Source of the DNA: Psammoneis japonica
Lineage: Eukaryota
DNA: 55,866 nucleotides
Assembly (NCBI GenBank): GCA_008632985.1
Contig: QPGO01000320.1
Location: 1 to 55,866, forward strand
Direction: 5' to 3'
Part shown: in pieces, positions 20,203 through 55,140 of the stretch
Position numbering within the stretch: position 1 is the first letter of the stretch
Layout of the letters: each line of letters opens with the position of its first letter
Position numbers and translations under genes: made by a program
Notes under the pieces: generated by a model
Database searches by the model: none
What the model was told of the DNA's origin: nothing
Seen by the model: only the letters and a program-made list of their open reading frames with translations

Positions 20203-20252
20203 GCAGGGGGGTCTACAACAAATGCTATCTCTGACCGATCTTTTTCTTGTCA

Positions 20253-28200: not shown

Positions 28201-28276
28201 AATGATGATGCGCCCTCTTTGAGGGATGCGCTGGGGGGGCAGCGCATAATTTCCTAGACGCTGGGGGGTTGAAGGA

Positions 28277-28750: not shown

Positions 28751-28766
28751 CCCACCCGCCCGCCCG

Positions 28767-28951
28767 GAGGTTGAATGAGCGGTCGAGCTCTCCAGCGATG
28801 CTGTTTCTGACTTAGATTTCCATTTGGGAAACTCAAATTAGAACCAACACCTCTTCAGACCTCGACTGCCCTTTGGATCTCTAAGCTCAGTGCGGGTGGT
28901 GACATTGTGGCCACCACCATCTGACAACGTAGAGATTGGAACCAGGAAACC
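28767..28951 (+). repeat. Split direct repeat B2
   Basis: Copy of B1 at the element's 3' end. Confidence 0.95.
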
Positions 28952-29775: not shown

Positions 29776-31534
29776 TTAGTCAAAAAGGCTGTCGTCAAGA
29801 GGGTTATCAAACATGTCGTGCCGAGGCGCCGCAAGAAGAACGGGTTTTCTGTTCTCAAAAAGCGTCAACTTCAACATATAAATGAACAGAAGGATGCACG
29901 TTACAACCGCAAATACCAGCGTTTCGTTCACATATTTCATTTTTGCAAGCGCAACAATAACCGCAAGAATCACGACGAAGACAAAAAACATTGCCAAAGG
30001 TGGAAGTCCAGGTTTGTAGTTGTCACCGTCACCGTAGACACGAGCCTTCTGAGTGGCCTTCAGTCTCTTCGCAAGCACTAGTAGCATCATCGAAGCCATG
30101 AATCCACACATCACCACAAGCAAAAATACGTCTGGTTTCGACCACTCATCAACTCGAAACGTGTCTAGTGAGCGACACTCTTCGTCACACCACACCCCGT
30201 ATTTAGAAATTCTCTGGCACATATTCCAGTCGCCAACATCATAGTAGTTGTCGTATAGCGAACGCATAACACCCGTATCCTTGGCACCCACAAAAGGACA
30301 CACGAACGAGAAAATGACGTCAGGTGTGAAAAACCGAACAAGACTCATGCCTAGACCGTAGACGGTGAGGGGACTTACGTAACTGCCAGGAAGTAATTCA
30401 TGTGCTTGTGTAACGCGCCGTAGCTTTCGTATCCTTCTTGCGTAGTAATCGTCCTGATCGTCGTCGTCGTTGACATCATCTTTGTAATCGTCCTCGTCGG
30501 CGTTGTCGTCGGCGTCGTTCTTGTCGTAGTCGTCATCAAATGCATCATCATCGTCCCCGTAGTCATCCTGCCTTTTGCCATTTTGGCTGATGTAGTCATC
30601 ATCATACCAGTTCCCGCTTTTCTTGTTGAAGTTCTCCGAGATTTCTTCAGGCGCACAAGTCTGGCAAGCATAGAATGGCGGACGGAACGATACCTTGGTA
30701 GAGAAGTAGTAGCCATTGATCTTGTAGCCTTTCGTGGAATGCCGTCTACTGCTTTCGCCGTCGTCGTACGGGACAGAGCACTGAGCATCTGTATAGACAT
30801 GTAGCTGAAGTTTAGTGGAGGTAAAAGTTTCACGATCCATGCAACCAATCTTCGCATACAGTATCGTGTCCTCGTTGTCGGTTTCTTGAAGCAAAACGCA
30901 CTGATTTGTCAATAGGACAAGGAGAAGAGGAGATGAGATCTAATGAGAGAGCCAGAAATACGAGGAGACTCGACTCTTACCCCAAGATATTCAGCATCCC
31001 CGGGTAACTGAAAGTCCCTTCCGTAAACCAATGCCTGGTAATTGAAGTAGGCTCTCATGTAGTGCGAAATTGATACCACAAAAGATCCGATGCTTCGGAA
31101 ACGGCATTGGTATCCTGAATCATTGTCAAATAGCTCGAATTTGATCATGTGGCCGTTATTACTGAGGTATATAAGAACGCGGTCAGTGAGCAATATAATG
31201 CGAGCATTGAGCAAATGGCACCAAAACAAACTCACTAGTTGATGCAAGATACAGGCATTACGGAAACACCATCGAAGTTCATCCCATCGTCCATACGGAA
31301 GGTGTCATCGCCATCATCATTGGCAGCCTCCACCTGCGATAGGTCATCGTAGTCATCCTTATATTCTTCTCCGTCATCGTTGTAATAGGCAACATTTCCA
31401 TCCCCCGCCACGACAAAGTTAAAGCACGACTGCCAATGCAACAACGGCCATGCGATAGCAATCATCCATATTAAAGAAGAGAAGTTGCCATAACGACTTA
31501 AGTTGCGCCTATTGCTTCCGCGAAGACCCCCCAT
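29776..31534 (-). CDS. Host gene, uncharacterised multi-pass membrane protein with Asp-rich segments (about 4 exons)
   Basis: Normal Tyr, CpG and TpA usage. N-terminal hydrophobic segment and 3 C-terminal TM helices. GT-AG intron 31162-31235 joins CIN-Y-NNGH. A likely in-frame intron lies at 30280-30378. An intron at ~30901-30980 has a phase I could not reconcile by eye. The start could instead be 31564. Confidence 0.75.
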
Positions 31535-31789: not shown

Positions 31790-34700
31790 ACGAGTTACGT
31801 AACTGTCAAAACTCAGGCAGGACTCGGGACTCGCGCGCTCGCTCACCTCGTGTTACTGCATTGGCACTGCATCGGCACCTGCGGCGCAGTGTCCGTTTGA
31901 CACCGAGCTCTACCCGGTAGAGAGAGTAAAACAAAACCCAAAGTCTAATTTTAAGTGCTGCTATGCTTCCACCCTGCAACTCCAGCAACAAGCTAACCCA
32001 CACTCCCAGTGCACTGGGTGCGGCAGGAGCACATGACAATTGGCCAAGATCGGCATCACCCTCGGGTGATGCTGCGCCAAAGTGGCTTGCGATGGGTGGC
32101 ACGCATGCCTCGAACGGCTAGATGCCGGGCCTCTCGGATGCTCGACTTAAACATTGGCTTTACCATGGCTAGCCAGTTTTGGAGTCTGCAGGTAGAATGG
32201 GTGAGATGCTCATCCACCGAATCAAACAACCACTGTGCTCGGTCACGAGCCAAGCACTCATTTGCCCTTGAACAGATTTCTTTAACCTCCGCCTCTGCAC
32301 CCCGGTGTTGCGAAGACTTTCTTGTTTTGGAATCGTGTCCATGTGCTGCATCGTTGTGGGTGTCCCACAGCTCCCACCATTGCGACCACACGTAACTGCC
32401 AATCGTTGCCACCCAATCTAATCTTTTGTCTTTATCGGACAAGGAACAATGCAAGCCAGAGGACAACAAATGTGACGTTTGTGCCTCATTCCACAAAGAA
32501 GAAAAGCACCCACTGAAGATGTGGCGCCAGCCAATTTTGTCTTGAGATCGAAAAACATCTGTGACGCTGTGGTGAACGTGGTTAGAACAAAGCAAGTCTT
32601 CATGAAACCAACCTTCCAAGGCACACAACAACAGGTCTCGCATGGACGGGCGGGAAGTGTGAATGTCATCACATTTCTTCCACAAGCCTTGGAGGAACAC
32701 ACACTGCCACAATTCATTGTGGTTGCTGTGCAGGACATGGTCCCCATCTTCAAGGGGGTGTTGGCAATGTGTGCAGCAGTCGGGGCTCGGGGCGTGCAGG
32801 ATTGCATCTGTGGACGATCTCATTCGTCGGCAGCAAGTCTTGGACTAATTTCACGGTGCTCACCTTTCATCGAACATTGCAAGACATCAGTTTGGAATGC
32901 ACTCTCCAATCAATGGAATTGTGCACTGAGTCTGACCATCCACATTTCTCCTTCATGCATTGCACCAAGGCGGGACTGGACGCTTCACAACAAAGAATGG
33001 ATTTAAACTTCGAATTCACCGACAACGCCTGGACGTTTGGCAATGCAGAGCAGTGGGGCATGCAGGGGACCACCAAGGCATCACCAGTGCACTGACCCTG
33101 AAACAAACCTGCCAATTTGTTGGCTCTGATGTTCAATTTGGCTGGAAACGGGAGGGACTCACATGGAGCATTGTCGTCCTGATGACTTTTAATCCACTTC
33201 ATGTCGACGACGTTGCCTGCTGAGTGTCCGTTGAATTGGGCCTCCAAACTCTTTAATGAAACAAAGATCTCATGGATGACATCCCAATCCGGCACCAACG
33301 TGTTGGCCATGTGGTGCCTCAAGTGACAGTCTTGTTGCAGCTGAGATTCATCCCCACTTCCAATGGGAGCGGTGGGGGAGAGTGAAAGTTGGCAACATTG
33401 CGCACCAGAGAAGAGTTGTCACAGCAAGTGTCCATGCCATGAGAAAGAAAGCAATTGCAAAATTCCAGCACTCGAATGAGAAAGCGCAAGATGGATGAGA
33501 AGCCACATGCTTCAGCTCGGTGCGAGGACAGTCGAAATCCAAAGACCGGTCCAGCACAATCAACGAGAATCACGCCATTGACGGCTAGCGTCCAACCAAA
33601 GGTGCCATTAAAATGCAACACAGAGCCATCACTTCCAACCTCTGCTCGAAAATGCTGAAGGGAATCTGCTGTTTTGAACACTGATGCATGCATGGTGAGG
33701 TCATTGAACAGGGTAGACTCCCACAGCGACAAGGACCGCAGCCATTCACAGAAATCCCTGTGGATGGGAATTGTTGCAGGTGTTGCCACTGGGGACACAG
33801 TGGAGCGTAACTGACATCTGCCATCTAAAGTCACACCCACCATCACAGGAGATGCCAATGGAGATAGATCTGGAACCGTTTCTAACTGATGTAGAGTTTC
33901 AGCGCAAGCACCCTTGATGGGAAACACTTGACAACCCTCATCAGATTGGACATGCAGGAACTCTTTGACACAAGTGCCATGTCCATAATGTGTTGATCAT
34001 TCTCTCATTGTGCAAGAAGGACGCCAGTGAAATCCAATTCAAATTGTGAGTCAATTTGAGCAAGAAAGGATCTCATTGACACAAACCACTTGGACTCAGA
34101 GTGTGGGAGTTTAGTGTGAACCATCCATCAGAAAACTGGACCTCGTTCCAAGCTGGAATTGCATCCACATGCAACTGCAATGTGGGACAAGGTGTGAGGT
34201 TGACCTGTGCCTTGCCAGTGTCGGAGGAACTGCAAACATTGAGCAATGCCCTGCTCCACATCAAGAGACCAGAAACCACCACCTCCTGGGGTGTGCGGGC
34301 TACACAGAACATCCCGCTTGGTGTTGCGGTTATATCCGCACTTTGCAAAAACAGTTTGCATTGCCTTTCGTTGAATCTTGAGTAGTTCCTTTGGGTGGAA
34401 ATGGGTGTTCAGAAGGACACAAGCAGTGGAGGCCAAGCAGCAAGCAAAGCAGTGATCCATGCCTCATGATGGTCCAATGGGCACGACTGGAGAAACAGTG
34501 AAATGTCATCACTTTTCGTTTTTAGTGCCTTGCACTGAGTCTTTTGAGTGCCTGCTGGAGACTTGTAAAATGGCCCAAAGTCTTGTGTGAGGAACATGCT
34601 GAGAGTTGTGTGCTGGATCTTTTGGTGGATCTATCGGCAGAGTGTGTTTCAACATCTATCTCGTCATTGTACACTCGAAGGCATGGCTCGCCATCTTCAG

Positions 34701-34905
34701 TAAAAAGCCATTCAATGGCGTGAAACGAGCACTTTGGAAGCTCAAGCTTGTGTCCTGCCACGTCCAGGAGGTTGCACCACAACTGACTGTCTTCCTGCAT
34801 TCAAGGGACTGGGTCCAGTGCATGTGGTTGGGGATCAGCACAGAAGGCATTGACCTGACCTGAAGTGTCATCATCAGAGGCCCGCAGAAAAGGCCTTCAG
34901 TCACA
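31790..34905 (-). mobile_element. Ambal-like LINE 3' fragment (end of RT, RNase H, C-terminal zinc-binding region, 3' end)
   Basis: Minus strand: DDTS, QLWCNLLDVAGHKLELPKCSF, CGYNRN, GGGGF, SDGSVLHFNGTFGW, SSHRAEACG, CDNSSLV, PDWDVI, WIKSHQDD, CTHCQHPLEDGDH, QDKIGWRH. Internal deletions present. Confidence 0.85.
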
Positions 34906-37900
34906 AGTCATTGAACCCCACCATCTCATGGCATGCACGCATGCACCTAGATTGGTGGACCCCACTCCAGATTAAAATTGACATTTGCTTGTTGGAAAGA
35001 CAACATTTTTGTTCATTTTTAATTTACAGATTAGAACGTCAGGCATTTATTGTGCCACAACACATTGTATTTAATTGACATTTGTTGACTTGTGTGCCAA
35101 AATGCCAAGTCACACAGCACTGTCATTCCCTCAACTGAGGGCAATTGCATTTCGTTCCAGCTGAAAAATGTTCATTTTCATGTTGAACAAGGCATTTTTG
35201 CTGAAATTTCTGCATCTCCGTCCTCATGATGGATGTTGACAATTCTGCAAAAATTTCCACCCTTTTCTGCTCTCCCCCAAAACCCCCTCCTCTCCGCCAA
35301 ATCACAATCTTTCATTTGCGCCATTCCCCCGAGCGATCCTGTTTGGGGCATTTGTCCCTTCTACTTGTGATCTGTGGGTCCAATCCCCTGTGGTTTTGGT
35401 GAATCTGTGCAGAACCGCGAAAGCAGCATGACGACAAGTCCGTGGTTTCTACGTCCTCTGTTCATGCCGCGATGGCCCATGGCGGTTTTCCTCTCCTGCT
35501 GTTGTGACCATGCCCCGTCTCAAAGTCACGCCCAAGCAAAGCAATGTCTCTCTTCTAGCTCTGAATCATTCGGGGATGCCACCCAATGCGAAACTCACCC
35601 ATGGCACCACTTTGTCACGTCTCCAGACCACCACAGCTTGCTCAATGACATTTTTTCGACATCATCCAACGTGGTGGCAAACCTCTCTGATGACGTCAAT
35701 CTTAGCTCTGACGACTCCTCCGGTGGCAACAACTCGTCTGCTCAAGGCAATGATCACGCCAGCACACCATCTGCATCCGGAGACCTTGACAGTTGTGCCA
35801 GTGATCTTTCTTTTCCCAACAAAGATGATGTGGATGCCGATTCTTTAGATGGAAGCAATGTTTCTGTTCTTGATGACCATGCCAAAGTACACACAAATGA
35901 TGCTGACGGCACCCACATGACAAAGTCCCAATTTAAAAAAATCATTGAGACGCAGCACCGCTGCCAGAAGTTCATCGAGACTCACAAATGGACACCCTCA
36001 GCTGATCTCATTGCCCTGCCCTTCGTTTGTTATAACCACCAGAATCGAGCCTCCCATTTCTTCATGGAAGTGTTGAAGGTCAACGATGTAGTTGCCCATT
36101 CTCTTGGCTGTAAAGACGGCTTTCATTGTGTAAAAAGTCGTGGCTGGATTTGTTTTCATCGTAAAGATGGGAGGTGTGTTCTGGAGTGCCACAAGCTGGC
36201 TGAAACCTTTTCCAATCTTTCCCGATTCAGCAAACATCTCCATGCAATCATTGACGATTTATGAGAGATGACAGTGAGCGAACAAATTGGCAACGACCCA
36301 TGCTTCCCCTTCGGCTCCACAGCTTCAGATCCAAACTGGATTTTTTTGCGCAATGCCTGAGCATCACTGCCACCATAACGCAATGTTGCTTTCTCCCTCA
36401 CGTCAATGAAGAGTTCAGTGATTTTCGATGCTGGTCGACCATTGTTTTTTCCGGCTGCGAAAAGAGGAAACAGTTTGTTCTGTTTTGCAATGATGTTTTG
36501 ACCCTGATGAACATGGAACAGAAGTTGAAGGATGGGAAGGTCACCAAGAAGATCCTCACCGATCATCTGGAATGTGTCAAGGCTTGCGTTGACACTCATG
36601 CCACGGCAAAAGGCATGGCACAAAAATGCCAAGAGTTGGTTGAGCGTGAGCTCCATTCCACCTTCAAGCATTCCTGCAAGGACACGAATCGTCTCAAGTT
36701 CCACAACCTGGTAATTGTGCGATCACGTGTCCACAATCTCATGCATCCACACCTTTCCCGTGCGGCCAAGGCAAAGTTTGTTTCTTCCACCATGAGGAGG
36801 AAGAAGAGCAAGGAGTCCTCCAGTGTGTTTGCTGGTTCTCCAGCACCTCCGCCCACTTCATCCAAGAAAGAAACCAACCAGAATCCTGTTGCTCATCCAA
36901 CCGGCACCATGGCCGATGCCCCACCATCCGCCAATCGCTCCATGAGTGCACTCGCCTCCCAGTTGCAACCTTCGGCTGACAACAAAGTTGAGGCATTGAC
37001 AGACGGAGAGTCGTCATTGTCGGGTGAATCATCGACTGAAGACCACCCCATCCAGAATGTTCCCGATGCCGGTGCTGTGGGTCCATCTGTGGGAGGAGTC
37101 ACTTCTTCAGCAGCTCCATCGAAGCCAAGCACATCGGCCAGCACTACAACTTCCTTGTCAATCGAAGATCGGTTCCCCGGTGGTCATTGTTGCCACTTTG
37201 CATCCCTTTCTGATGTCTCTGGGTGTGCTCCTCGCGTTTGCATTTTTTAGATCCAGACATTGATGACGATGACAATGAGCAATCTGCCAATCGTGAGTTA
37301 AACCTGCACCATTCTCCAGTGGACTGTTGCTTGCTTGACGATCTATGACATCATCTCCATTCCTTTGTGACGACGCAACCACTTCCTTCTGCCACAAATC
37401 ATGACCGGGAGCTGGTGGTTGTCCCACCCAGAGCTCAACGTGTTCAGGATGACACTGCCATTTTGTGCTCGTCCTCCCATCTTTGGCAGAAACACTTTGG
37501 ATCTCTCCAAGTTGATGTCGGCATGATTGCCTGTTTTGTGCTTGAACACGGCCACTCCAATCCCAATCGTGATGGGAAGATCATGCACTGCAAGAAAAAC
37601 AACAAAGATTGGTCCAAGCAGCCAGACAAATGGGACCGGATCGATTTTGGCTGCAGTGGTCAGTCTCACGATGTGCTCGAGAACGGCAAGAAAGTCCCAT
37701 CACTGCAAGTCGGTTTTGGAATTTTCAAGAAAGAAAAAAACGTCGTCATCCGCAATCAGATCAAGTCCATGCTTGCGGATGCACATGATTCCATGCAGAG
37801 GTGCCATGATGAGCTAGAGACGGAGTGCTTTGGCAATCCTCGACCCTGCAACAACACCGCAAGAACTGCAATGCATGGGGCCACACTTTGCACTGGGCTG

Positions 37901-40900
37901 GGTTGCAAAGTAGCAAGGAATGAGCTTGGCACTGTCCAAGCTAAGATCATGCCTGATGGTGTGCAGATTCATCCAGACGATTGAAATTGTGTTTTTTGTG
38001 GATGCACCAAGACCGGAGCCCTGTGTTTTTTCATCCTGGACAAGTTGGGGAATGTCGTTTCTGTCAAGTTCATTGCCAACAGCCGGAAATGCGCGGGTGA
38101 ACATTTTGACCAGCATCTGATGTTACCACCGTTGAAGACAATGATGCTGAAGCACGTCACAGCCATAAATTGTGCATGCAAGGAGTTCTCTTTGTTGTGC
38201 AAGTGTCCTCACAGTCCACCAAAAGATTTGAACCACCGCCATCCCTAGAACATGTTTCTCGATGATCATTGCCCACACAAGGAAAAGGCACTCGACAAGG
38301 CTCTGGTTCGATTGTCATGGACAGGTTGGAGTTTCCCACCTCCTGCATTCAGGATTTGTGGTTGTCAATGGGGATCACTGTCCTGTTCCGACTCCGAGAT
38401 GTGCTCGCAATCCACAAGGTTGTCAAGATGGCTGTCATGGCTTCTTGTCAGACTGGATTCCACTGGTTCTTCCACATTGGCATGGAGCACAGGGATGAGT
38501 TGACTGAACCCAGTTCCAATCCTGCACTTGTCTGCTGTCAACCAGCCATGAAGCTGTTTGGCACTGCCCAGCGGCTGTAATTCTGTTGAGACCTGCTGCA
38601 AAGATTCCTCTGCGACTGGCCACAAGAGGAAATCCGATGAATCCACCTGCACAAGAAGCAACCGGAAGCGCACCTGCCAGGTCTCTTTGTCCAACTTGGA
38701 GAAAGAAATTCTCCCCGATGATGCTGACATTGAAGACATTCTTGGTGCAGGAGAATCCTCCGACGACAACGCTGAAACAGACATTGAGGGAGAGGGCGAT
38801 CTCCGGCTCAATTGCCTCGAGATGTCGGGTGTTGTGGATGAAATGGTGGTGGTGATTCTTGATTTGTTGAAATGGATTGACAATCACACCGGCTCACAGG
38901 ATTTCCACCATGCCATGCTGGAGATGCGTTTCTGGCTGGCAATCGAGAAATTCCTGAGAGGAACCAACATCAACAAGTTTTGTTTAATGTTGGTCGTCCA
39001 AATGCTAGTCAGCACAGGAATCATTGTTCATCCCCACCCTGATTTGAGAAATCTTGTTTATCCTGCATCCAAACTTGGCATTGCAAAGACATTCTCGTTT
39101 TGGAATCATGTCCATGTGCTGCATTGTTGTGGGTGTCCCACAGCTCCCACCATTGCAACCACACATGACTGCCAATCATTGCCGCCCAATCTAATCTTTT
39201 GTCTTTATCGGACAAGAAACAATGCAAGCCAGAGGACAACAAATGTGACATTTGTGCCTCACTCCACAAAGAAGAAAAGCACCTGCTGAAGACATGGCGC
39301 CAGCCAATTTCATCTTGAGATCGAAAAACATCTGTGACACTGTGGTGAACGTGGTTAGAATAAAGCAAGTCTTCATGAAACCAACCTTCCAAGGCACACA
39401 ACAACAGGTCTCGCATGGACGGGCGGGAAGTGTGAATGTCATCACATTTCTTCCACAAGCCTTGGAGGAACACAGGCCACCACAATTCATTGTGATCGCC
39501 ATGCAGGACATGGTCCCCATCTTCAAGGGGGTGTTGGCAATGTGTGCAGCAGTCGGGGCATGCAGGATTATGTCTGTGGACAATCTCATTTGTCGGCAGC
39601 AAGTCTTTGACTAATTTCATGGTGCTCACCTTTCATCAAACATTGCGAGACATCAGTTTGGAGTGCACTCTCCAATTAATGGAATTGTGCACTGAGTCTG
39701 ACCATCCACATTTCTCCTTCATGCATTGCACCAAGGCGGGACTGGACGCTTCACAACAAAGAATGGATTTAAACTTCGAATTCACCAACAACGCCTGGAC
39801 GTTTAGCAATGCAGAGCAGTGGGGCATGCAGGGGGCCACCAAGGCATCACCAGTGCACTGACCCTGAAACAAACCTGCCAATTTGTTGGCTCTGACGTTC
39901 AACTTGGCTGGAAACGGGAGGGACTCACATGGAGCATTGTCATCCTGATGACTTTTAATCCACTTCATGTCAACAACGTTGCCTGCTGAGTGTCCATTGA
40001 ATTGGGCCTCCAAACTCTTTAATGAAACAAAGATCTCATGGATGACATCCCAATCCGGCACTAACGTGTTAGCGATGTGGTGCCTTGAGTGACAGTCTTG
40101 TTGCAGCTGAGATTCATCCCCACTTCCAATGGGAGCGGTGGGGGGGAGTGAAAGTTGGCAACGTTGCGCACCAGAGAAGAATTGTCACAGCAAGCGTCCA
40201 CGCCATGAGAAAGAAAGCAATTGCAAAATTCCAGCACTCAAATGAGAAAGCGCAAGATGGATGAGAAGCCACATGCTTCAGCTCGGCATGAGGACAGTCA
40301 AAATCCAAAGACCGGTCCAGCACAATCAACAAGAATCACGCCATTAACCTCTAGCATCCAACCAAAGGTGCCACCAAAATGCAACACAGAGACATCACTT
40401 CCAACCTCTGCTCAAAAATGCTGAAGGGAATCTGCTGTTTTGAACACTGATGCATGCATGGTGAGGTCATTGAACAGGGTAGACTCCCACAGTGACAAGG
40501 ACCGCAGCCATTCACAGAAATCCCCGTGGACGGGAATTGTTGCAGGTGTCGCCACTGGGGACACAGTGGAGCGTAACTGACATCTGCCATCTAAAGTCAC
40601 ACCCACCATCACAGGAGATGCCAATGGAGATAGATCTGGAACCGTTTCTAACTGATGTAGAGTTTCAGCGCAAGCATCCTTGATGGGAAACACTTGACAA
40701 CCCTCATCAGATCGGACATGCAGGAACTCTTTGATGCAAGTGCCACATCCACAATGTGTTGATCATTCTCTCATTGTGCAGGAAGGATGCCAGTGAAATC
40801 CAATTCAAAGTGTGAGCCAATTCGAGCAAGAAAGGATCTCATTGACACAAACCACTTGGACTCAGAGTGTGGGAGTTTAGTGTGAACATCCATCAGAAAA

Positions 40901-43900
40901 CTGGACCTCGTTCCAAGCTGGAATTGCATCCACATGCAACTGCAATGTGGGACAAGGTATGAGGTTGACCTGTGCCTCGCCAGTGTCAGAGGAACTGCAA
41001 ACATTGAGCAATGCCCTGCTCCACATCAAGAGACCAGAAACCACCACCTCCTGGGGTGTGCGGGCTACACAGAACATCCCGCTTGGTGTTGCGGTTATAT
41101 CCGCACTTTGCAAAAACAGTTTGCATTGCCTTTCGTTGAATCTTGAGTAATTCCTTTGGGTGGAAATGGGTGTTCAGAAGGACACAAGCAGTGGAGGCCA
41201 AGCAGCAAGCAAAGCAGTGATCCATGCCTCATGACGGTCCAATGGGCACGACTGGAGAAACAGTGAAATGTCATCACTTTTCGTTTTTAGTGCCTTGCAC
41301 TGAGTCTTTTGAGTGCCTGCTGGAGACTTGTAAAATGGCCCAAAGTCTTGTGTGAGGAACATGCTGAGAGTTGTGTGCTGGATCTTTTGGTGGATCTATC
41401 GGCAGAGTGTGTTTCAACATCCATCTTGTCATTGTACACTCGAAGGCATGGCTCGCCATCTTCAGTAAAAAGCCATTCAATGGCGTGAAACGAGCACTTT
41501 GGAAGCTCAAGCTTGTGTCCTGCCATGTCCAGGAGGTTGCACCACAACTGACTGTCTTCCTGCATTCAAGGGACTGGGTCCAGTGCATGTGGTTGGGGAT
41601 CAGCACAGAAGGCGTTGACCTGATTTGAAGTGTCATCATCAGAGGCCCGTAGAAAAGGCCTTCAGTCACAAGTCATTGAACCCCACCATCTCATGGCATG
41701 CACGCGTGCACCCAGATTGGTGGATCCCACTCCAGATTAAAATTGACATTTGCTTGTTGGAAAGACAACATTTTCATTCATTTTTAATTTGTAGATTAGA
41801 GTGTCAGGCATTTGTTGTGCCACAACACATTTTATTTAATTGACATTTGTTGACTTGTGTGCCAAAATGCCAAGTCACACAGCACTGTCATTCCCTCAAC
41901 TGAGGACAATTGCATTTCGTTCCAGCTGAAAAATGTTCATTTTCATGTTGAACAAGGCCTTTTTGCCAAAATTTCTGCATCTCCGTCCTCATGATGGATG
42001 TTGACAATTCTGCAAAAATTTCCACCCTTTTCTGCTCTCCCCCAAAACCCCCTCCTCTCCACCGAATCACAATCTTTCATTTGCGCCGTTCCCCCGAGCG
42101 ATCCTGTTTGGGGCATTTGTCCCTTCTGCTTGTGATCTGCGGGTCCAATCCCCTGTGGTTTTGGTGAATCTGTGCAGAACCGCAAAAGCAGCATGACGAC
42201 AAGTCCGTGGTTTCTACGTCCTCTGTTCATGCCGCGATGGCCCATGGCGGTTTTCCTCTCCTGCTGTTGCGACCATGCCCCATCTCAAAGTCACGCCCAA
42301 GCAAAAGCAATGTGTCTCTTCTAGCTCTGAATCATTCGGGGATGCCACCAAATGCAAAACTCGCCCATCGCACCGCTTTGTCACATCTCCAGACCACCAT
42401 GGCTTGCTCAATGACATTTTTTTGACATCATCCAATGTGGCAGCAAACCTCTCTGATGACGTCAATCTTAGCTCTGACGACTGCTCCAGTGGCAACAACT
42501 TGTCTGCTCAAGGCAATGATCACGCCAGCACACCGTCTGCATCCGGAGACCTTGACGGTTGTGCCAGTGATCTTTCTTTTCCCAATGAAGACGATGGGGA
42601 TGCCGATTCTTTAGATGGAAGCAATGTTTCTGTTCTTGACCACCATGCCAAAGTGCGCACAAATGGTGTTGTCTGCACCCACATGATGAAGTCCCAATTT
42701 AAAAAAAATCATTGAGATGCAGAACCGCTGCCAGAAGTTCATCAAGACTCACAAATGGACACCCTCCGCTGATCTCATTGCCCTGCCCTTCGTTTGTTAT
42801 AACCACCAGAATCGAGCCTCCCATTTCTTCATGGAAGTGTTGATGGTCAATGATGCAGTTGCCCATTCTCTTGGCTGTAAAGACGGCTTTCATTATGTAA
42901 AAAGTCGTGGCTGGATTTGTTTTCATCGTAAAGATGGGAGGTGTGTTCTGGAGTGCCACAAGCTGGCCGAAACCTTTTCCAATCTTTCCCGATTCAGCAA
43001 ACATCTCCGTGCAATCATTGACGATTTATGAGAGATGACAGTGAGCGAACAAATTGGCAACGACCCATGCTTCCTTCAGCTCCACAGCTTCAGATCCAAA
43101 CTGGATTTTTTTGCGCAATGCCTGAGCATCACTGCCACCATAACGCAATGTTGCTTTCTCCCTCACGTCAATGAAGAGTTCGGTGATTTTCGATGCTGGT
43201 CGACCATTGTTTTTTCCAGCTGCGAAAAGAGGAAACAGTTTGTTCTGTTTTGCAATGATGTTTTGACCCTGATGAACATGGAACAGAAGTTGAAGGATGG
43301 GAAGGTCACCAAGAAGATCCTCACCGATCATCTGGAATGTGTCAAGGCTTACGTTGACACTCATGCCACGGCAAAAGGCATGGCACAAAAATGCCAAGAG
43401 TTGGTTGAGCATGAGCTCCATTCCACCTTCAAGCATTCCTGCAAGGACACGAATCATCTCAAGTTCCACAACCTGGTAATTGTGCGATCACGTGTCCACG
43501 ATCTCATGCATCCACACCTTTCCCGTGCGGCCAAGGCAAAGTTTGTTTCTTCCACCACGAGGAGGAAGAAGAGCAAGGAGTCCTCCAGTGTGTTTGCTGG
43601 TTCTCCAGCACCTCCGCCCACTTCATCCAAGAAAGAAACCAACCGGAATCCTGTTGCTCATCCAAACGGCACCATGGCCGATGCCCCACCATCCGCCAAT
43701 CGCTCCATGAGTGCACTCACCTCCCAGTTGCAACTTTCAGCTGACAACAAAGTTGAGGCATTGTCAGACAGAGAGTCGTCGTTGTCGGGTGAATCATCGA
43801 CTGAAGACCACCCCATCCAGAATGTTCCCGATGCCGGTGCTGTGGGTCCATCCATGGGAGGAGTCACTTCTTCAGCAGCTCCATCGAAGCCAAGCACATC

Positions 43901-45883
43901 GGCCAGCACTACAACTTCCTTGTCAATCGAAGATCGGTTCCCCGGTGGTCATTGTTGCTGCTTTGCATCCCTTTCTGATGTCTCTGGGTGTGCTCCTCGT
44001 GTTTGCACTTTTTATGATCCAGACGACCATGACGATGACAACGAGCAATCTGCCAATCGTGAGTTTTAAACCTGCATCATTCTCCAGTGGACTGTTGCTT
44101 GCTTGACGATCTACAACATCATCTCCATTCCTTTGTGACGACGCAACCACTTCCTTCTGCCACAAATCATGACCGGGAGCTGGTGGTTGTCCCACCCAGA
44201 GCTCAACGTGTTCAGGATGACGCTGCCATTTTGTGCTCGTCCTCCCGTCTTTGGCAGAAACACTTTGGATCTCTCCAAGTTGATGTCGGCATGATTGCCT
44301 GTTTTGTGCTTGAACACGGCTGTTCCAATCCCAATCGTGATGGGAAGATCATGCGCTGCAAGAAAAACAACAAAGATCGGTCCAAGCAGCCAGACAAATG
44401 GGACCGGATCGATTTTGGCTGCAGTGGTCAGTCTCACGATGTGCTCGAGAACGGCGAGAAAGTCCCATCACTGCAAGTCGGTTTTGGAATTTTCGAGAAA
44501 GAAAAAAACGTCGTCATCCGCAATCAGATCAAGTCCATGCTTGCGGATGCACACGATTCCATGCAGAGGTGCCATGATGAGCTAGAGACGGAGTGCTTTG
44601 GCAATCCTCAACCCTGCAACAACACCGCAAGAACTGCAATGCATGGGGCCGCACTTCACACTGGGCTGGGTTGCAAAGTAGCAAGGAATGAGCTTGGCAC
44701 TGTCCAAGCTAAGATCATGCCTGATGGTGTGCAGATTCATCCAGACGATTGAAATTGTGTTTTTTGTGGATGCACCAAGACCAAAGCCCTGTGTTTTTTC
44801 ATCCTGGACAAGTTGGGGAATGTCGTTTCTGTCAAGTTCATTGCCAACAGCCGGAAACGCGCGGGTGAACATTTTGACCAGCATCTGATGTTACCACCAT
44901 TGAAGACAATGATGCTGAAGCACGTCACAGCCATAAATTGTGCATGCAGGGAGTTGTCTTTGTTGTACAAGGGTCCTCATGGTCCACCAAAAGATTTGAA
45001 CCACCGCCATCCCGAGAACATGTTTCTCGATGATCATTGCCCCACATGAGGAAAAGGCACTCGACAAGGCTGGTTCGATTGTCATGGACAGGTTGGAGTT
45101 TCCCACCTCCTGCATTCGGGATTTGTGGTTGTCAATGGGGATCACCATCCTGTTCCGACTCCGAGATGTGCTCGTAATCCACAAGGTTGTCAAGATGGCT
45201 GTCATGGCTTCTTGTCAGACTGGATTCCACTGGTTCTTCCACATTGGCATGGAGCACAGGGACGAGTTGACTGAACCCAGTTCCAATCCTGCACTTGTCT
45301 GCTGTCAACTAGCCATGAAGCTGTTTGGCACTGCCGCCGGAGATGCAGGAGTTGCTCCACACTGTCTGAACCCCAGCGGCTGTAATTCTGTTGAGACCTG
45401 CTGCAAAGATTCCTCTGCCACTGGCCGCAAGAGGAAATCCGATGAATCCACCTGCACAAGAAGCAACCGGAAGCGCACCTGCCAGGTCTCTTTGTCCAAC
45501 TTGGAGAAAGAAATTCTCCCCGATGATGCTGACATTGAAGACATTCTTGGTGCAGGAGAATCCTCCGACGACAACGCTGAAACAGACATTGAGGGAGAGG
45601 GTGATCTCCGGCTCAATCGCCTCGAGATGTCGGGTGTTGTGGATGAAATGGTGGTGGTGATTCTTGATTTGTTGAAATGGATTGACAATCACACCGGCTC
45701 ACCGGATTTCCACCATGCCATGCTGGAGATGCGTTTCCGGCTGGCAATCGAGAAATTCCTGAGAGGAACCAACATCAACAAGTTTTGTTTAATGTTGGTC
45801 GTCCAAATGCTAGTCGGCACAGGAATCATTGTTCATCCCCACCCTGATTTGAGAAATCTTGTTCACCCTACATCCAAACTTGG
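32304..45883. repeat. ~6.8 kb tandem segmental duplication (unit 1 ~32304-39078, unit 2 ~39077-45883)
   Basis: Continuous colinearity. The junction aaacttgg|cattgcaaagac at ~39077 joins the end of the unit (cf. 45876 aaacttggtgc) to its start (cf. 32301 cccggtgttgcgaagac). Unit 1 has a ~38-bp deletion at ~38566. Confidence 0.95.
39079..41670 (-). mobile_element. Duplicated copy of the Ambal-like fragment
   Basis: Colinear, high-identity copy of ~32306-34905. Confidence 0.9.
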
Positions 45884-47890
45884 TGCTGTGAAGCAGTTAG
45901 AGCACTTGGACCCCAACGATGGTGCAGCATGTGCTGACTCGACAATGGTCGAACATGGAATAGAGCATCACGGTGGCTCCAGCGGGGGAATGTGTCCTCT
46001 GTGATTTGTGTGCTCCAAATCATGTTGAAGGCATCATTGGAGAGCATTGTGCTCGTGGTCAGCATGTTTTCATGCTCATTGGAGAGGACACTGCCCCTGG
46101 TGTGAAGCGATGTGGCACTGGACATTGGGGTGCTGTTCCCATCATGACAGAGGGGTAAGTTTCAACACCAAACTGTGCTTTGCATTGGATGTTTTCTAAT
46201 TGCCACTCTTGTTCTTCTACTTTGAAAGAACTAGAGTGCCAGGGGAAGACCTGGGTGATTTGGAAAATCAAGATGCAGCAGCAGAGGAAGAAGAATTTTC
46301 TCAATCCCCAAATGATTTTGGCTCAGATGTTAACAAGTTGGCAGCACAACAAGAATTGAGTCATCCCAAGGACGAGAGAGGCATCCCTCCCAATGGCACC
46401 ACCAAACACTGTGACTCTGAATCACCGGACTTTGACGACATGAGGGAATCACCTCAAGAGAGCCCGGATCTCTCATTGCAACTGAAGAAAACAAAGGTGT
46501 TGTTTTTGTGCATGACACAGATGAACAACATTGATTCTCTGTCATTCACAAATCTGCTTGACGACATCAACGACAACTTGTTCAGTGGAAATTCCAAACT
46601 GAGATCCGACGTGACAAGGATGCTTGCCTGTCGTGACATGGTGCTTGATGTAACCAACCGCACCATTGATTGTGAATTTTACACAGCTTCTCCAAGCGAT
46701 GGTCACAACGCCCATCACCTCAACTGCAATGTGTGCAGTCCTGCATTTTGCAACAAGGTCATCACAAAGTTCGGAAGTGACTTTGAGGAAATCAACTTGG
46801 ATCACTTTTGGTTACAAAAGGGTTGGTTGAGCGACAGATTCAACCCAAGCTTCTTCTTCAGCAGGAAGTTGCCTGAACTGTCAAAATGGATGAAAGTTGG
46901 TGGTGCCATCAGCATCCCTTTTAACATTGAGACATTTCTTTCCTGTGTCTTGCAGGAGGAGTCCATTGTTGAAATGTGCCATGCCCTTTTTCCGGAGGAT
47001 GTGCGCGTCCCATTGCACAAACCACACTGTTGCAGTTATTTCGATGATGAACAGTGCAAACAAAAGCTGAATCTAGATCATGCACACCAGGTGAACAAAT
47101 GCCCAACCGGTGTTACGAGCAGCAAAGCTGGCCAGTCGGTTCGGGAACCTTTTCGCCTTCAAGCCGAAGAGGTTTGGAAGCGGTTGAGCAACAAAAACCA
47201 CCGTGTTGATCTTTGCAAATGGATTCACCTGGTGAAAAAGTAAGAAGACACGATGATGTGGTGTCCAGCCCATCCAGGAACATTCACGCCAATGGTGCCA
47301 CTTCAGCTGGCATTCGTTGGACACAGAAATGGCAAAACATGTTGAGATGGCAATCGCAGTGAAAGTCTGAAAGACCGTCGGATGTAAAAACACATAAGGC
47401 GATGAGCCAGTTCCTCACAAAGAGCAGCTCCCAGCCAATGATTGAGCCATGTTGATGCATGTCGAGTCAAACGATCGTCCCGTTAAGATGCCTCATCAAG
47501 TCGCGGTCACAGCTTTTTGCAGGTGGAGAACAGACGTGTCGCGGGGCATGCAAATGCACATCTGTGTTGTCAAAGGCTTCCAACAAGACAGACGGAAGAT
47601 GAGGCAGGAGATCATGCCTTCGTCCATCCAGAGTCAAGTCCAAATTTATGTTGAAGTCGTGCAACCAAAATTCCATTGCGCAATGATCGTTTCCACGCTC
47701 CTCATCACAGAAGATGCAAGTGTTGGGAACCCAATCTTGAAAATGTGTTTCTCTAATGTGTCTCTGAGCAGGGGTAATGTCATTGCCGCCCCGTCTCTTT
47801 GTGGGCACAATGTGATGACTGCGCATGGACAGGAAGTGTCGGAACCTTGCATGTTGATGAAAATGTCTCCTGTTTGTGTCGATGCTCTTG
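41675..47890 (+). mobile_element. Unclassified decayed multi-gene element (partial copy at ~34910-39078)
   Basis: AT-rich terminus-like region (41720-42080), then a long frameshifted plus-strand ORF (~42230-46158), ORF 46200-47243 and a minus-strand ORF remnant (47250-47890). It carries the same Tyr-to-Cys/His decay as the TEs. No transposase recognised. Confidence 0.5.
46200..47243 (+). pseudogene. Rossmann-fold methyltransferase-like ORF (tentative)
   Basis: KVLFLCM (strand 1-like), HHLNCNV, FEEINLDHFW (motif-IV-like, probably ancestral LDYFW), LPELSKWMKVGGAISIPF (LxxxLkpGGxxxx pattern). Confidence 0.35.
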
Positions 47891-49425
47891 CAGAACTCCA
47901 CGTCCTGCAGTCGAACATAACGAGTTGATTCGAATTCTCCTGCTGTTGTCCTAAACTTTGCATGAATTGGTCCTGTCTCTTCCAATGCTGGAACCGCTCC
48001 AACTGGCAACACCCGAGCATGAATCATTGAATGGGTTCCACCGGAATCAAGTAACACCCGCATCACGCGCTTGCTTTCCTTATCTTGAATGAATCGCGCC
48101 GCGAATGAGGTTGTAGGGACCACACTTAATGGTTTCATTGGTTTTGTTTTTGGGGTTGGTACAGCGCACTCAATTCCCACATCATCTTCGTCATTCACAG
48201 CATAATTTCCGAAATCGTCATCATCAAATAAATCAGCAGCGTGTGCACAATAATCATCAATGCAATCAGTGCAATCATCAAACATATAAAAATCAGGAGC
48301 GACACACTCGGACGACAGCTCTTCAAGCTCATTGGGTCAGTGTCGACCGCGTCCCGAGAAGTGACCACCAGGTTGAAAACTTCCCGTTCCACCTCGATTC
48401 TCTTAAGGCCCTCCCATCGAATCAAGATGATGGCTTTCAGCAGACCAATCATTGGGAGGAGCCGTTCTGGCCGGATTACCGTAACCGCCGCCATCTGCAT
48501 TGGTTCGGGTGTCGTTTTGACATTGCATGTAAGAGCCACCATCATCATGATGCTCGCCGCCATTGCCGCCAGAGTTATAGTTTCCGCGACCACCGTAGTT
48601 TCCTCGGCCACCACCACGACCTTGACAGCCACGGCCTTGCCAACCATGACCTTGCGCTCCGCCATAACCATGACCTCCACCTCGACCGCCACCTCGACCG
48701 CCACGGCCACCATGTCCGCGACCTCCGCGATCAGTTCTTGGACGGCAGTTGTTAGAGTCGGGATTCATGACGCAATCTTTCCACTTGTGATTGTGAGCAT
48801 GCAAAGGACATTGAGATTCTGGGTCAATACGATTGCCTTTCTTCTTGGCAGAGCCGCCACCTTTCGACTGTCCGTCTTTGTGCTTCTTCGAAGTCTTCTT
48901 GTTCCTGTCTGCAAATGATTTCTCCGTGCTCATGTACGTTACAATTTCCGCTAGCGCATCATTTCCAATCATGCGTCCTGCTCTTGCACACATCTCGCGC
49001 CACGACAAAGGGAAGCTATCAAAGATCATCTTCTTCTTTTGGTTCTGAGTGATAACTGGATTATTTCCCGGCAACTTGTTCGTGTATCACACCAAGGTCT
49101 CCATTCGATCCGCATGTGCCTGTACTTCAACATCATGTGGTTTTTTAAGAGAGAGCAAGTATTCAATCATCGTGTCACGCGCTTCAGTTTCACAACATGA
49201 CAAATAAAAATGAGCCAATTCTTGGTCAAAACAAGCCACCATCTTTTGCGCATTCGGAATCGCCATGGTGAGATTGGACCATTTATCTTCAGCGGCATCT
49301 GTCAACACTTCCTCGAAATTATCAAATAGTTCTTCGCCTGTAGTGAATTCAAGTTTTGCAGCCTTCGCTCTCAACATTCTTTTCTCTTGTTTCGTAAGCC
49401 TGTTAGTTGTGTCGTTGTTTCTCAT
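47890..49425 (-). mobile_element. Truncated Ty3/Gypsy retrotransposon (gag + aspartic protease)
   Basis: gag with FDNFEEVL...KKPHDVEV...ETLV*YTNKLPG...FDSFPLSW, knuckle CPLHAHNHKWKDC and a Gly/Arg-rich tail. Protease MRVLLDSGGTHSMIH...FRTTAGEF. RT and integrase are absent. Confidence 0.8.
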
Positions 49426-49444
49426 TCAGCTCTTTACAATCGAC

Positions 49445-49813
49445 TGTAATTACAGTGCAAGCTCAAGCTGAAACTGATGTCAAAACAAAGAAGTGAGTAG
49501 ACCGAAGAGAGGGGAGCCTAAGCGTTAGCGAACGCTGGCGAGCCTCTCTCAAACGGCTACGTTAATCTAATATTCAAAATTAATACTATATGTCAGAAGC
49601 GTGCGAGTGAGTTGCTGCATACGGAACTGTGATAATGCCGGACATTTATGATGACTGGGTGTGTTACTCTGTAGACCTGGCACTTAACCTACTGACGTCT
49701 TGGCTACGTAATTTCTTGGTATAAAGAGGAAGCTCAGTGGTAGCGCGCTTCGCAGAAAATAAGAAGACTGCAGAGGCCTGGGGTTCGATTCTTATTTCTA
49801 ATCTCATGTTACA
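49445..49813 (-). repeat. Candidate LTR (TGTAA...TTACA)
   Basis: 369-bp segment with 5-bp terminal inverted ends, just upstream of the Gypsy gag. No PBS or TSD seen. Confidence 0.35.
49728..49793 (+). other. tRNA-like / Pol III A-box + B-box remnant
   Basis: AGCTCAGTGGTAGCGCG (D-arm/A box) and GAGGCCTGGGGTTCGATTC (T-arm/B box). No convincing acceptor stem or anticodon arm. Confidence 0.45.
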
Positions 49814-52435: not shown

Positions 52436-53472
52436 ATGTTAACATGTGTGATTTAATGGTAAAGTTTGTTCTTCCCTTGCTCTGCCATGAGGGGCCACTT
52501 TGTGTCGATTTGTCGATGCATCCGTCATGGTCGTGCACAGTTTTTTCCGTGCACCGGTCGCCATGAGGATAAAAGCACACCCGCCTGTCTATAATTGCCA
52601 TACATTGCCGCATTCCATTCATTTTTTGTTCCCCTCCCCTGAGCCCTTTTAGTCATTCCTTCCCACTAAAAATGCCCTCATTTCCCGGAAATTCCACAAA
52701 AGGGCAAGGTAATTCCCCCTCACCCTTGCCATTTTGGGGAATCCCCAAATGGGTAAAACCAAACTAAGGTCCGGTGGTCTAAGATTTTGAAACAAGAAGA
52801 AAAGCTTTATCTAGAGTCCAGAGTGGGGGGGGGGACAACAGTGCAAGTGAGACCAGCACCACCTCACAGCCAGCCAGGGTGCTCTCTGGCATCAAGCCCA
52901 CAGCTGTGCTCACTGGCATGTCACACTCAAGACTGAGATTTTGCTTTGTCAAATTGTTTGACATGGCACCAAAGCAGAACCCGCTGAGGCAAATGTTTGT
53001 TGCATCTCTCAAATGTGACCTGGGAAGCTTTCTTTGGTGTGGATTGCTGCTGCTGCACACCTTTTCTTAAAAAAAAATGGGGGGGGAGGCAGAAATGCGA
53101 CAGTCTTTGGCACTTTTAAGTGCAAAAATGGCCGATTTCCTTGGGCATTTGCAGTGAGCAGGAGGCTGTGCTGGCTGGTGGTGGGGTGCTGACAAGAAAG
53201 GGAGTGCAGCAAGTGTGGAAAAGTGGAGTAAAAAAATGTGCACACTCAAAGCAAAAATGGAGTCGAGATTTGGGGACTTGGGCAAAATGGCAAGGCTGAC
53301 GTGACTGTGTGGCAGAGGATGATGATGTGTGCGTGGTGCCAAATCGCGCCCGTTCGGAAAGATCGAACCAAATGACTCGTTGGACTAATCCTTGGGCGGC
53401 TCTGATGAAGAACTCGAGAGATGTGGACAATGGGGGAATCGCAAGCGGGGCTTCCGTGCCTTCGATACCACT

Positions 53473-55140
53473 ATGAGCTTTCACAATGTAGACGATCTAG
53501 ATCGAGCTGTGTCGTTTGTTTTTTCAGAAGCTCCAGGATCCAAGGTTTGCGACGTTGAGTGTGGAGATGATGTCGAGAGTATGTCAGAAACAAGCGACTC
53601 CACCTCGTTCCAGTCGCCTGTCCAGTTCCGTCATATCTTGGTTGGATACGCATTCGGACCTAAAAAAATGAGCACGATGGGAATTATTCTTGCGGAAGCA
53701 TCAAAGGCATTTTCTACGGTTGTGACGGCAGTAGTGCCCGTCTCACGGGAAGAGGACGAGACGTTGCGACACATTCCACTGGTTGCTCAGTCGACTTCGT
53801 CATCTGATTCGCGAGAGAGACTCATTGCCGGGATACCTTCACATCAGAATAGCACCGACCGCTGGCATACTGAGACTCAACTCTTCGACTCATCGGAATC
53901 CTCAGTTGTCTCTGTCGCCGAGTCGACCACAAGTGGGTCACTCGCAACGACGACGCGGCCTTCCGCTTCAAGTGTATCCCTACCGAAGTCGATCTCATCG
54001 CAGTCTGCGTTTCGCCTTCGTCCAATTCGCGTTTCTTTCGTACCATTAGATCTCAACATGCCATTGGAAGAACAGCATGGAGGAATTTTTGACGCAATTC
54101 TCCATAAACTCACCGAGGATATCCTTTGCTTGTCCAGAATATCGATCGATGCGCGGCGAAAAGGTTCTGTTTCAGATCGAGGTGATAGCATCAAACTTCG
54201 AGAAAATTGTTCCAACGCGGTTTCGAGGATCAACCGTCTGAATCAGTACGTGCAGACCCGTCCGCAGTGTTGTCTCGTTGATCATCCATCGAACGTACAG
54301 GTGTTAATGTCACGGGCCGACATAGCTTTGTGCTTGTCAGAGTGCCTTACCGGTGTGAAAAGCGCTAGTGGAATTCCGATCGGTACGCCGCGTTTTGAAA
54401 TCTTAGAATCAGAGAGCATGGCGACGGAAGACGTGTCACATATAGTCAATCGCACTCCGTTGAAGTACCCTTTGATTTCAAAGCCCCTTGCGGCTGCTGG
54501 AACAGCAGAGAGTCACCGCATGGCAGTGGTGCTTGATGCACCTGGCTTGAAATCGGTGAAACCTCCCTGCCTGCTCCAGGAGTATGCCAACCATGACGCA
54601 AACTTATTCAAAGTCTATGTTCTCGGAGACACTGTCCATGTATTCCAGCGTCCAAGTCTCCCTAACCTGCCTGCAGCTAGCTATTTCCAGAGGCACCAGA
54701 AACGGAAATCAAAGATGTATGTTGAGTTCGACTCGCAGCAGCCATATCCGACCCTCATTGACTTCGGCGTGGACGAAACTGATGATGCATGCAGCTCAAG
54801 AGCGAAGAGGAAGCGCCGAAGGGCTCCTTCATTTGCCTGCTGCGAAGCACCTGAAAACGAGTGCCACCGACTGTTCATTACCGTGACCGCAGATGAAATC
54901 CGTCCTCTGGTGAATGTCCTGAAGGTAGCATTTGGTCTGGAGTTGTTCGGGTTCGACATTCTCGTCACTGACCTTGACGAAGATGGCCGTGACAGCAGCA
55001 GCGCAGAGAAGCAAATGCTAGTTGTCGACGTGAACTATTTTCCGTCTTACAAGGAGGTGACGAATTTTCCTTCTCTTTTGGCTCAGTATCTGACGCAGCG
55101 AGCCATTCAATGTAGAATAAAGAGCTTGAATCTTGCTTGA
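53473..55140 (+). CDS. ITPK1: Inositol 1,3,4-trisphosphate 5/6-kinase (inositol-tetrakisphosphate 1-kinase, ATP-grasp fold), 555 aa, single exon
   Basis: VGYAFGPKK, FVPLDL, ILHKLTED, YPLISKPLAAAGTAESHRM, LLQEYANHDANLFKVYVLGD, RPSLPN, GLELFGFDI, VVDVNYFPSY. Open frame from ATG 53473 to TGA 55140. Confidence 0.93.
   Translation: MSFHNVDDLDRAVSFVFSEAPGSKVCDVECGDDVESMSETSDSTSFQSPVQFRHILVGYAFGPKKMSTMGIILAEASKAFSTVVTAVVPVSREEDETLRHIPLVAQSTSSSDSRERLIAGIPSHQNSTDRWHTETQLFDSSESSVVSVAESTTSGSLATTTRPSASSVSLPKSISSQSAFRLRPIRVSFVPLDLNMPLEEQHGGIFDAILHKLTEDILCLSRISIDARRKGSVSDRGDSIKLRENCSNAVSRINRLNQYVQTRPQCCLVDHPSNVQVLMSRADIALCLSECLTGVKSASGIPIGTPRFEILESESMATEDVSHIVNRTPLKYPLISKPLAAAGTAESHRMAVVLDAPGLKSVKPPCLLQEYANHDANLFKVYVLGDTVHVFQRPSLPNLPAASYFQRHQKRKSKMYVEFDSQQPYPTLIDFGVDETDDACSSRAKRKRRRAPSFACCEAPENECHRLFITVTADEIRPLVNVLKVAFGLELFGFDILVTDLDEDGRDSSSAEKQMLVVDVNYFPSYKEVTNFPSLLAQYLTQRAIQCRIKSLNLA

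Follow-up and report, generated by a model that had tools for sequence, protein, structure and literature searches.

The stretch analysed here, contig QPGO01000320.1 of Psammoneis japonica (55,866 nucleotides, referred to below as the window), is eukaryotic and rich in repeats. It includes a repeat of about 5.8 kb, element B, which carries on its plus strand the remains of one large gene at 42275-46158. The explanation preferred for this locus, which sequence comparison, predicted structures and analogy with known enzymes make probable, is a pseudogenised copy of a high-copy diatom-like repeat whose intact relatives would encode a DNA-modifying protein with a TET/JBP-like part fused to a transferase-like part. 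The element, the gene and its predicted domains are as follows.

41637-47440, plus strand: repeat element B, about 5.8 kb, with an inferred 5' end and an approximate 3' end
42275-46158, plus strand: decayed gene of a fused protein of about 1290 amino acids (aa), with an N-terminal domain, a TET/JBP-like domain and an aGPT-Pplase/AADT-like domain, colinear with the family members P0003 and P0002
42717-43500, plus strand: N-terminal conserved domain, an RGW...EYRKL region followed by a helical region, which in long members precedes the TET-like domain
44080-45150, plus strand: TET/JBP-like double-stranded beta-helix domain, with H at 44738-44740, D at 44744-44746, a TGA at 44750-44752 and N at 44753-44755
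45051-46155, plus strand: C-terminal helical domain, helix-hairpin-helix (HhH) glycosylase-like and nearest to a phage amino-acid:DNA transferase, split by a private one-base insertion near 45985

The large gene has been traced by aligning 20 long members of its protein family with the open reading frame (ORF) pieces of the window. The pieces 42717-44069, 44063-45046, 45000-46001 and 45973-46155 line up one after another on individual family members, for example P0003 (1135 aa), and the natural stop of the gene, a TAA at 46156-46158, falls at the residue where P0002 (605 aa) terminates. This arrangement alters the original prediction, which had described a cassette of three genes (TET/JBP-like, aGPT-Pplase-like and methyltransferase-like) at 44087-47243. 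The first two are domains of one fused protein, as the colinear ORF pieces indicate, and of the proposed span the start at 44087 has to be given up, since it cuts a gene whose pieces from 42275 onward are colinear with single proteins. The strings quoted in that prediction are all found on the plus strand: IHPDD*NCVFCGCTKT...VVSVKFIANSRK in the frame of 44063-45049, with the TGA at 44750-44752; FLRGTNINKFCLMLVVQML...PTSKLGAVKQL in 45000-46004; and FEEINLDHFW...LSKWMKVGGAISIPF in 46200-47243. PTSKLGAVKQL and GECVLCD had been placed in the same long ORF; the former is indeed in 45000-46004, but the latter is in another frame (45973-46158), reached through a shift private to this copy.

The window copy is a pseudogene and cannot make the protein, because its reading frame contains two TGA stops (at 43029-43031 and at 44750-44752, the second of which both units of a tandem duplication described below share) and is shifted in four places (near 42701-42715, 44064-44066, 45040, and 45985). 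Most breaks between the ORF pieces fall at small insertions or deletions (indels) that differ between the two duplicated units. The frameshifts at 45985, 45040 and 44065 are private to the window copy, since other copies, present in contigs of a public DNA sequencing run (X1), are without one base at 45985 (missing in 4 contigs), one at 45040/45043 and two at 44065/44066. The origin of the TGA at 44750-44752 from CGA, suggested in the original prediction, cannot be told from the family's sequences, because the corresponding column is mixed (most commonly K in 16, L in 10, S in 9, and R in 7 of 70) and the closest relative has H. Of the oxygenase motifs, the window copy retains H, D, N, K, N, S, and R, including an SxK...NSR at 44828-44854, and it also keeps the E (45988-45990) and C (46000-46002) of the transferase motif, with a D at 46003-46005. 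Conserved residues lost from it comprise R583 (replaced by C), R660 (replaced by H) and many Tyr. The N-terminal domain aligns with P0003, P0026, P0030, P0043, P0045, P0061, P0062, P0082, and P0096, and an ORF of the first duplicated unit (35371-36264) matches P0003 with an E value of 4e-16; no Pfam family matches this domain.

Element B is a high-copy repeat with many diverged copies in run X1, in agreement with the mobile or repeat setting that had been proposed. This run, which probably represents the source sample, is the only one found with DNA of the window, of which it contains 58% of the sampled words, and no RNA sequencing run containing window DNA was listed. When its contigs were placed on 39081-49500 at a minimum of 80% identity, 2562 were retained, 477 of them at 99% or more, 579 at 95-99%, 834 at 90-95%, and 672 below 90%. 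Just before 41637, eight contigs have loose ends whose flanks do not resemble one another (agreement 0.44), and therefore the 5' end of the element is likely to be there. The summed depth rises between the bins 41517-41864 and 41865-42212 and has its minimum in bin 47085-47432; the 3' end is located somewhere at about 47100-47450. Along the element the summed contig depth falls, being about 1500 at 41865-43600 but about 240 at 47085-47432, so that 5' parts are commoner than 3' parts, the opposite of the 5' truncation typical of long interspersed nuclear elements (LINEs). No terminal direct or inverted repeats of the element score above shuffled sequences, the 3' end being uncertain, and no transposase, integrase, or reverse transcriptase was found by Pfam in the ORFs of 41637-47440. 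A link to KDZ/Plavaka-type transposons, which the original prediction had mentioned as carriers of TET/JBP genes, thus finds no such transposase and no terminal repeats to rest on. No contigs related to 45000-46001 were found in a viral set or in a metagenome set, and none related to P0106 in the metagenome set.

Protein family, predicted folds and conserved motifs

The protein family is real by sequence comparison. With the piece 44063-45046 as query (its TGA read as X), phmmer from the HMMER package returned, among 1.84 billion representatives, 97 hits at E<=1e-3, 53 of which are at E<=1e-10 and 11 at E<=1e-30. The best of them, P0002, is 66% identical (E 6.8e-88), and on record the members are named only "hypothetical protein." ORF length is weak evidence in this DNA: TpA is scarce in the region of the decayed gene (observed/expected 0.15), which makes TAA and TAG uncommon and leaves long open frames on either strand; the 5.8 kb contain 24 TAA, 14 TAG, and 140 TGA. 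An origin of the open frames by chance in TpA-poor DNA, with coincidental motifs, would be favored by these features. On the other hand, it has to face 97 homologues (down to E 7e-88), structure models of high confidence and the result of dinucleotide-preserving shuffles of 41637-47440, in which the median longest ORF is 183 aa and an ORF of at least 347 aa appears in 1 of 300. Such a chance origin is barely conceivable for the locus as a whole, and for 42275-46158 it is refuted by the homologues and the models.

AlphaFold models of two intact relatives are of high confidence: P0014 has a predicted local distance difference test score (pLDDT) of 93.8 and a predicted template modelling score (pTM) of 0.90, and the second relative has a pLDDT of 90.5. 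Both models comprise a TET-like and an aGPT-Pplase-like domain. The predicted fold of the first is nearest to solved TET-family dioxygenases (TET2, NgTET1, CcTet, and CMD1), and that of the second, C-terminal domain resembles most closely gp46, a phage amino-acid:DNA transferase, and HhH glycosylases. The rows of top probability in BFVD are AADT, "Pplase1 clade 1" and "5-hmdU DNA kinase helical domain" proteins (5-hmdU, 5-hydroxymethyl-2'-deoxyuridine), all at E>0.1. Readings of motifs by eye as PD-(D/E)xK, HNH, or kinase-like were dropped, the fold search having given 2-oxoglutarate oxygenases throughout.

The motif residues are conserved in both domains. In the HxDxxN motif of the TET-like domain, H is present in 69/71, D in 70/71, and N in 64/70 sequences. 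The spacing agrees with that of H1382-R-D1384-x-x-N1387 in TET2, whose iron ligands include H1382 and D1384 and whose N1387 is shared by TET1-3 (PMC6244454). A second motif, SxKxxxNSR, is also conserved in the family (R in 60/67), as are the polar residues R184 (61/65), Q284 (64/71), K286 (62/70), K329 (61/69), and R335 (60/67), and a His upstream of HxD (H101 of P0014) is found in 49/50 members. In TET2, R1896 binds 2-oxoglutarate alongside R1261; among the conserved Arg residues, R184, R335, and R426 (41/52) are candidates for this function. In the C-terminal domain, the motif [E/D]xxxC[E/D]xxxxR has its acidic residue at -4 in 26/27, C in 37/38, E at +1 in 26/36, and R at +6 in 25/28 sequences. 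Strings with the same spacing are present in phage M6, where EHTLCE is found in gp55 (Pfam HMUDK_hel, formerly clade 1) and ETVLC in gp51 (Pfam ADDT, formerly clade 2). In clade 2 aGPT-Pplases, the Cys and a neighbouring Glu are essential (PMC8989533), and in gp46 Cys247 is the proposed nucleophile, its target being C6 of the base that has been flipped out (PMC11472151).

The assignment of fold and family, made from sequences and models, is thus highly probable for the large gene. At the level of fold and motif, the TET/JBP-like reading of the original prediction is borne out by a domain with HxDxxN nearest to solved TET-family dioxygenases, and the aGPT-Pplase-like reading by a domain with GxFxxxxxQ...G...ExxLCE nearest to phage gp46 and HhH glycosylases. 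Profile and structure comparisons had been suggested together with that prediction: fold matches and conservation of motif residues were obtained, but sequence profile matches were not.

Several results weigh against the preferred reading. No Pfam model matches the domains in any of 38 relatives at E<=1e-3, and none of relevance matches any of 12 relatives at E<=10, the models Tet_JBP (PF12851), ADDT (PF18724) and HMUDK_hel (PF18723) included; PHROGs and NCBIfam match none of 13 relatives. Foldseek gave no match at E<=1e-3 in PDB or BFVD. No P-loop 5-hmdU DNA kinase was found in the family or, by Pfam, in the ORFs of the element in this window. Finally, no conserved His equivalent to H1881 of TET2 was seen by eye after HxD in an alignment of 82 sequences, so a caveat already attached to the original prediction stands; an iron triad of the canonical kind is thus not established, and the domain may have diverged in its catalysis. 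Other searches with sequence models gave a similar picture. For the ORFs of the window Pfam returned sub-threshold noise only, Tet_JBP matching none of them; phmmer and profile searches of PDB sequences gave nothing relevant, and P0018 had no usable hit in the ESM Atlas. The same Pfam collection matches M6 gp51 (E 1e-46) and gp55 (E 8e-56), and PF12851 has no match in the phage M6 record. Alignment with hhalign of the family domains to those of gp55 and gp51 gave probabilities of at most 0.6%, a comparison without power because the positive control, gp51 against gp55, reached only 1.4%.

That no conserved distal His was seen and no sequence model from either enzyme family matches would also fit a protein that has kept the two folds and does not modify bases. 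Its oxygenase domain would be degenerate and no longer bind iron, and its role could be, for instance, in DNA binding or in the mobility of the repeat. In addition, element B has many copies, yet no transposase, reverse transcriptase, or integrase was found in it, so that some encoded protein may have to serve its mobility. However, H, D, N, and the Cys with its flanking acids are present in nearly all members over a range of 27-66% identity, which argues for selected active sites, and the further polar residues listed above point in the same direction. This non-catalytic explanation is considered unlikely.

Candidate activity and comparison with known systems

If the intact members are DNA-modifying enzymes, as the preferred reading proposes, they would act on pyrimidines in DNA, a suggestion that comes from their likeness to TET/JBP enzymes and from the thymidine hypermodification of phages. 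The oxygenase domain would hydroxylate the C5-methyl group of thymine (or of 5-methylcytosine, 5mC). The C-terminal domain would then flip out the modified base, its cysteine would attack C6, and a group would be exchanged at the 5-methylene, the product being a modified or hypermodified base. This mechanism, drawn by analogy, is tentative and somewhat less than an even prospect. The phage transferases require a kinase that first phosphorylates 5-hydroxymethyluracil (5hmU) (PMC8989533).

Cytosine might be the base concerned. In such an anti-silencing module, the TET-like domain would oxidize 5mC of the element and the HhH glycosylase-like domain would remove or convert the base, so that a repeat methylated by its host could free itself of that mark. 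The closest solved folds are in fact those of 5mC dioxygenases (TET2, NgTET1, CcTet, and CMD1), CpG is depleted in the repeats of the window (observed/expected 0.13-0.8 vs 1.09 in the host gene described below), and of the 240 differences that separate the tandem units, 105 are CG<->TG/CA changes, which fits methylated repeats. Against this explanation, the C-terminal domain has the acidic-xxx-Cys motif known from phage aGPT-Pplases that modify thymine and not the Asp/Lys of HhH-GPD proteins, and gp46 outranks every glycosylase in three structure searches: AGOG, Mag1, AlkA, EndoIII, and OGG1 all score below it, as does the queuine salvage protein DUF2419. Moreover, the substrate is not readable from the fold, since JBPs and dinoflagellate TET/JBP homologues act on T (PMC11572971). 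An action on cytosine of this kind is therefore regarded as rather unlikely.

The fused protein proposed here resembles two known groups of enzymes. With the TET/JBP family (TET2, NgTET1, CcTet, CMD1, JBP1/2, and dinoflagellate TJ1) it shares the predicted double-stranded beta-helix fold and HxD with Asn at +5. It differs from that family in that the Tet_JBP model of Pfam is unmatched, no conserved distal His was found, the oxygenase-like domain is fused to AADT-like and N-terminal domains, and the gene is borne by a high-copy diatom repeat. With the phage amino-acid:DNA transferases (PaMx11 gp46/PUGT and M6 gp51) and with M6 gp55 it shares the predicted helical fold and the acidic-xxx-Cys motif, the clade affinity being split, as BFVD lists both clades. 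Unlike the phage proteins, it comes from a eukaryote, has no Pfam match and forms the C-terminal part of a chain that begins with other domains, a TET-like one directly before it; the genes of the phage enzymes have as neighbours those of a P-loop 5-hmdU DNA kinase and of a deoxyuridine monophosphate (dUMP) hydroxymethylase.

Neither kind of enzyme is new, and phages are known to pair the two functionally. Iyer and colleagues reportedly described in 2014 TET/JBP genes carried on fungal transposons, and Iyer, Zhang, Burroughs and Aravind are said to have predicted in 2013 DNA modification in chlorophyte and stramenopile algae from hydroxymethylpyrimidines made by TET/JBP enzymes. The family would fit the latter description, and its architecture is possibly listed there already. 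In the literature searched, no paper was found that links TET/JBP to diatoms, and nothing relevant turned up on TET/JBP in stramenopiles or on thymine pyrophosphorylase. The present analysis adds the fused architecture tested by structure, a family sized at 97 with no Pfam, PHROGs, or NCBIfam match among the members tested, the lack of a conserved distal His seen and of a kinase, and the residence in a high-copy, hypermutated diatom repeat.

The interest of the proposed protein is that one polypeptide would join the folds of the first and the last steps of thymidine hypermodification, a pathway whose demonstrations to date all come from phages. Should the intact members prove active, 5hmU-derived or other modified bases that nobody has sought may be present in diatoms, which would affect the reading of diatom epigenomes and of nanopore and bisulfite data, bear on the conflict between repeats and host over silencing, and offer a source of DNA-modifying enzyme tools. 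As no conserved distal His was seen and no kinase found, the family would also be a useful test of how far such chemistries diverge.

Mutation bias, tandem duplication and neighbouring sequences

Every repeat of the window is short of TpA (observed/expected 0.08-0.33) and has an excess of TpG and CpA, and the two gene-like stretches have TpA values of 0.46 and 0.57. The loss of TpA is strongest at 5600-12300, 18000-19900, and 32056-47440. Compared with the closest intact relative, the window protein has Cys in place of Tyr at 10 positions and His in place of Tyr at 7, no change running the other way, and the share of Tyr is 0.1% vs 3.1% in that relative; the direction of change is therefore from TpA to TpG/CpA. 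The tandem units differ at 240 places, and 75 of these changes are TA<->TG/CA, so the process acts after duplication. No description of a TpA-directed mutation process in repeats was found in the literature. A link between this process and the enzyme family, as in the original prediction, is speculation, although enzymes that modify thymine and are borne by repeats would be evident candidates. Intact members might modify thymine at TpA in repeats (to 5hmU, 5-formyluracil, or a hypermodified base), and misreading or misrepair would turn TpA into TpG/CpA (T to C), but this is very unlikely. Speculatively, such a process would resemble repeat-induced point mutation, with thymine modification replacing cytosine deamination, and it could be driven by the repeats or by the host acting against them. 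Since TpA is self-complementary, the data agree equally well with a process directed at adenine. Linked to the enzyme or not, the extreme directional loss of TpA in these repeats merits study.

The duplication in which the gene is found is a tandem segmental one with a unit of 6.77 kb (32308-39078 and 39081-45883, about 96% identical). Each unit has a LINE-like fragment on the minus strand and the repeat-gene element on the plus strand. In a self-BLAST comparison, 32308-38568 equals 39081-45335 at 96.0% and 38567-39078 equals 45372-45883 at 98.0%, and alignment of the two units by MAFFT gives 240 substitutions and 10 indel runs. This is a local duplication and not a transposition, because it cuts the LINE-like fragment on one side and the repeat gene on the other. 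The two copies to which the original prediction referred do exist as these units, with the restriction that copy 1 is truncated at the junction. The units and the other features next to the gene are listed below.

32308-39078, no strand assigned: copy 1 of the tandem duplication (self-BLAST, MAFFT), with a LINE-like fragment and the repeat gene, of which the 5' three quarters are present up to its truncation at the junction
39081-45883, no strand assigned: copy 2 of the tandem duplication, continuous into 45884-47243, which is single-copy in the window
39081-41636, minus strand: LINE-like fragment beside element B, in the duplicated unit, its 3' end cut at the junction; RNase H-like motif by eye
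46200-47243, plus strand: ORF3, 347 aa, just after the gene stop, with an acidic N-terminal half and a Cys/His-rich C-terminal half
47467-49425, minus strand: retroelement fragment adjoining the 3' side of element B, gag with a Gly/Arg-rich region; aspartic-protease-like DSGG motif by eye

ORF3, whose length exceeds what chance would give in the shuffles described above, is part of the repeated DNA and had been proposed as the methyltransferase-like member of the cassette. This reading is unsupported: ORF3 matches no Pfam family above the cut-off and no Pfam methyltransferase at E<=1, has no homologue among proteins of near or greater length, and shows no likeness to the family of the large gene. 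In the ESM Atlas its best score is 0.87, and the Methyltransf_11 rows (0.85 and 0.83) are, like it, under the lead level of 0.9. The splice-donor consensus GTAAGT occurs within 46153-46160, where it overlaps the stop of the large gene (46156-46158), and ORF3 could possibly be a further exon reached through this donor; counter to this, relatives terminate 2-40 residues past a conserved Trp. A relative from outside the window, P0012 (1065 aa), has the TET-like domain twice in tandem, either perhaps because two adjacent genes were read as one or because copies of the repeat were assembled together.

In the LINE-like fragment at 39081-41636, the minus-strand ORFs 39021-39632 and 39636-40184 match 32056-33418, also on the minus strand. 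The fragment has no Pfam match, and its summed contig depth is below that of element B. The retroelement fragment at 47467-49425 likewise has no Pfam match and shows the greatest summed depth of the stretch (1924-3449). Elsewhere in the window, a copia/retrovirus-like fragment occupies 1-5600 on the minus strand, its ORF 1110-1568 matching Pfam SH3_retrovirus (E 9e-11), and a LINE-like element on the plus strand at 12900-18000 is interrupted by stops, with a weak Exo_endo_phos match at 14441-14995 (E 0.004) as sole profile support. A GC-rich element at 19913-28951 (56.5% GC) has terminal direct repeats, 19913-20202 being equal to 28461-28750 at 95% and 28277-28461 to 28767-28951 at 96%; its ORFs have by eye the look of a DIRS-type retroelement with a tyrosine recombinase, and no Pfam match.

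One clear host gene is present, an ORF for an inositol-trisphosphate 5/6-kinase at 53389-55140 (Pfam PF05770, E 5e-37). Its best named relatives are from diatoms, Odontella at 51% and then Cyclotella, Seminavis, and Thalassiosira. On this ground a dinoflagellate origin, for which 5hmU had been the motive, was rejected. Another ORF of 387 aa, at 29776-30939 on the minus strand, is probably a host gene as well; it has an Asp-rich acidic stretch, hydrophobic segments and no Pfam match, and its dinucleotide composition is normal (TpA 0.57, CpG 0.92).

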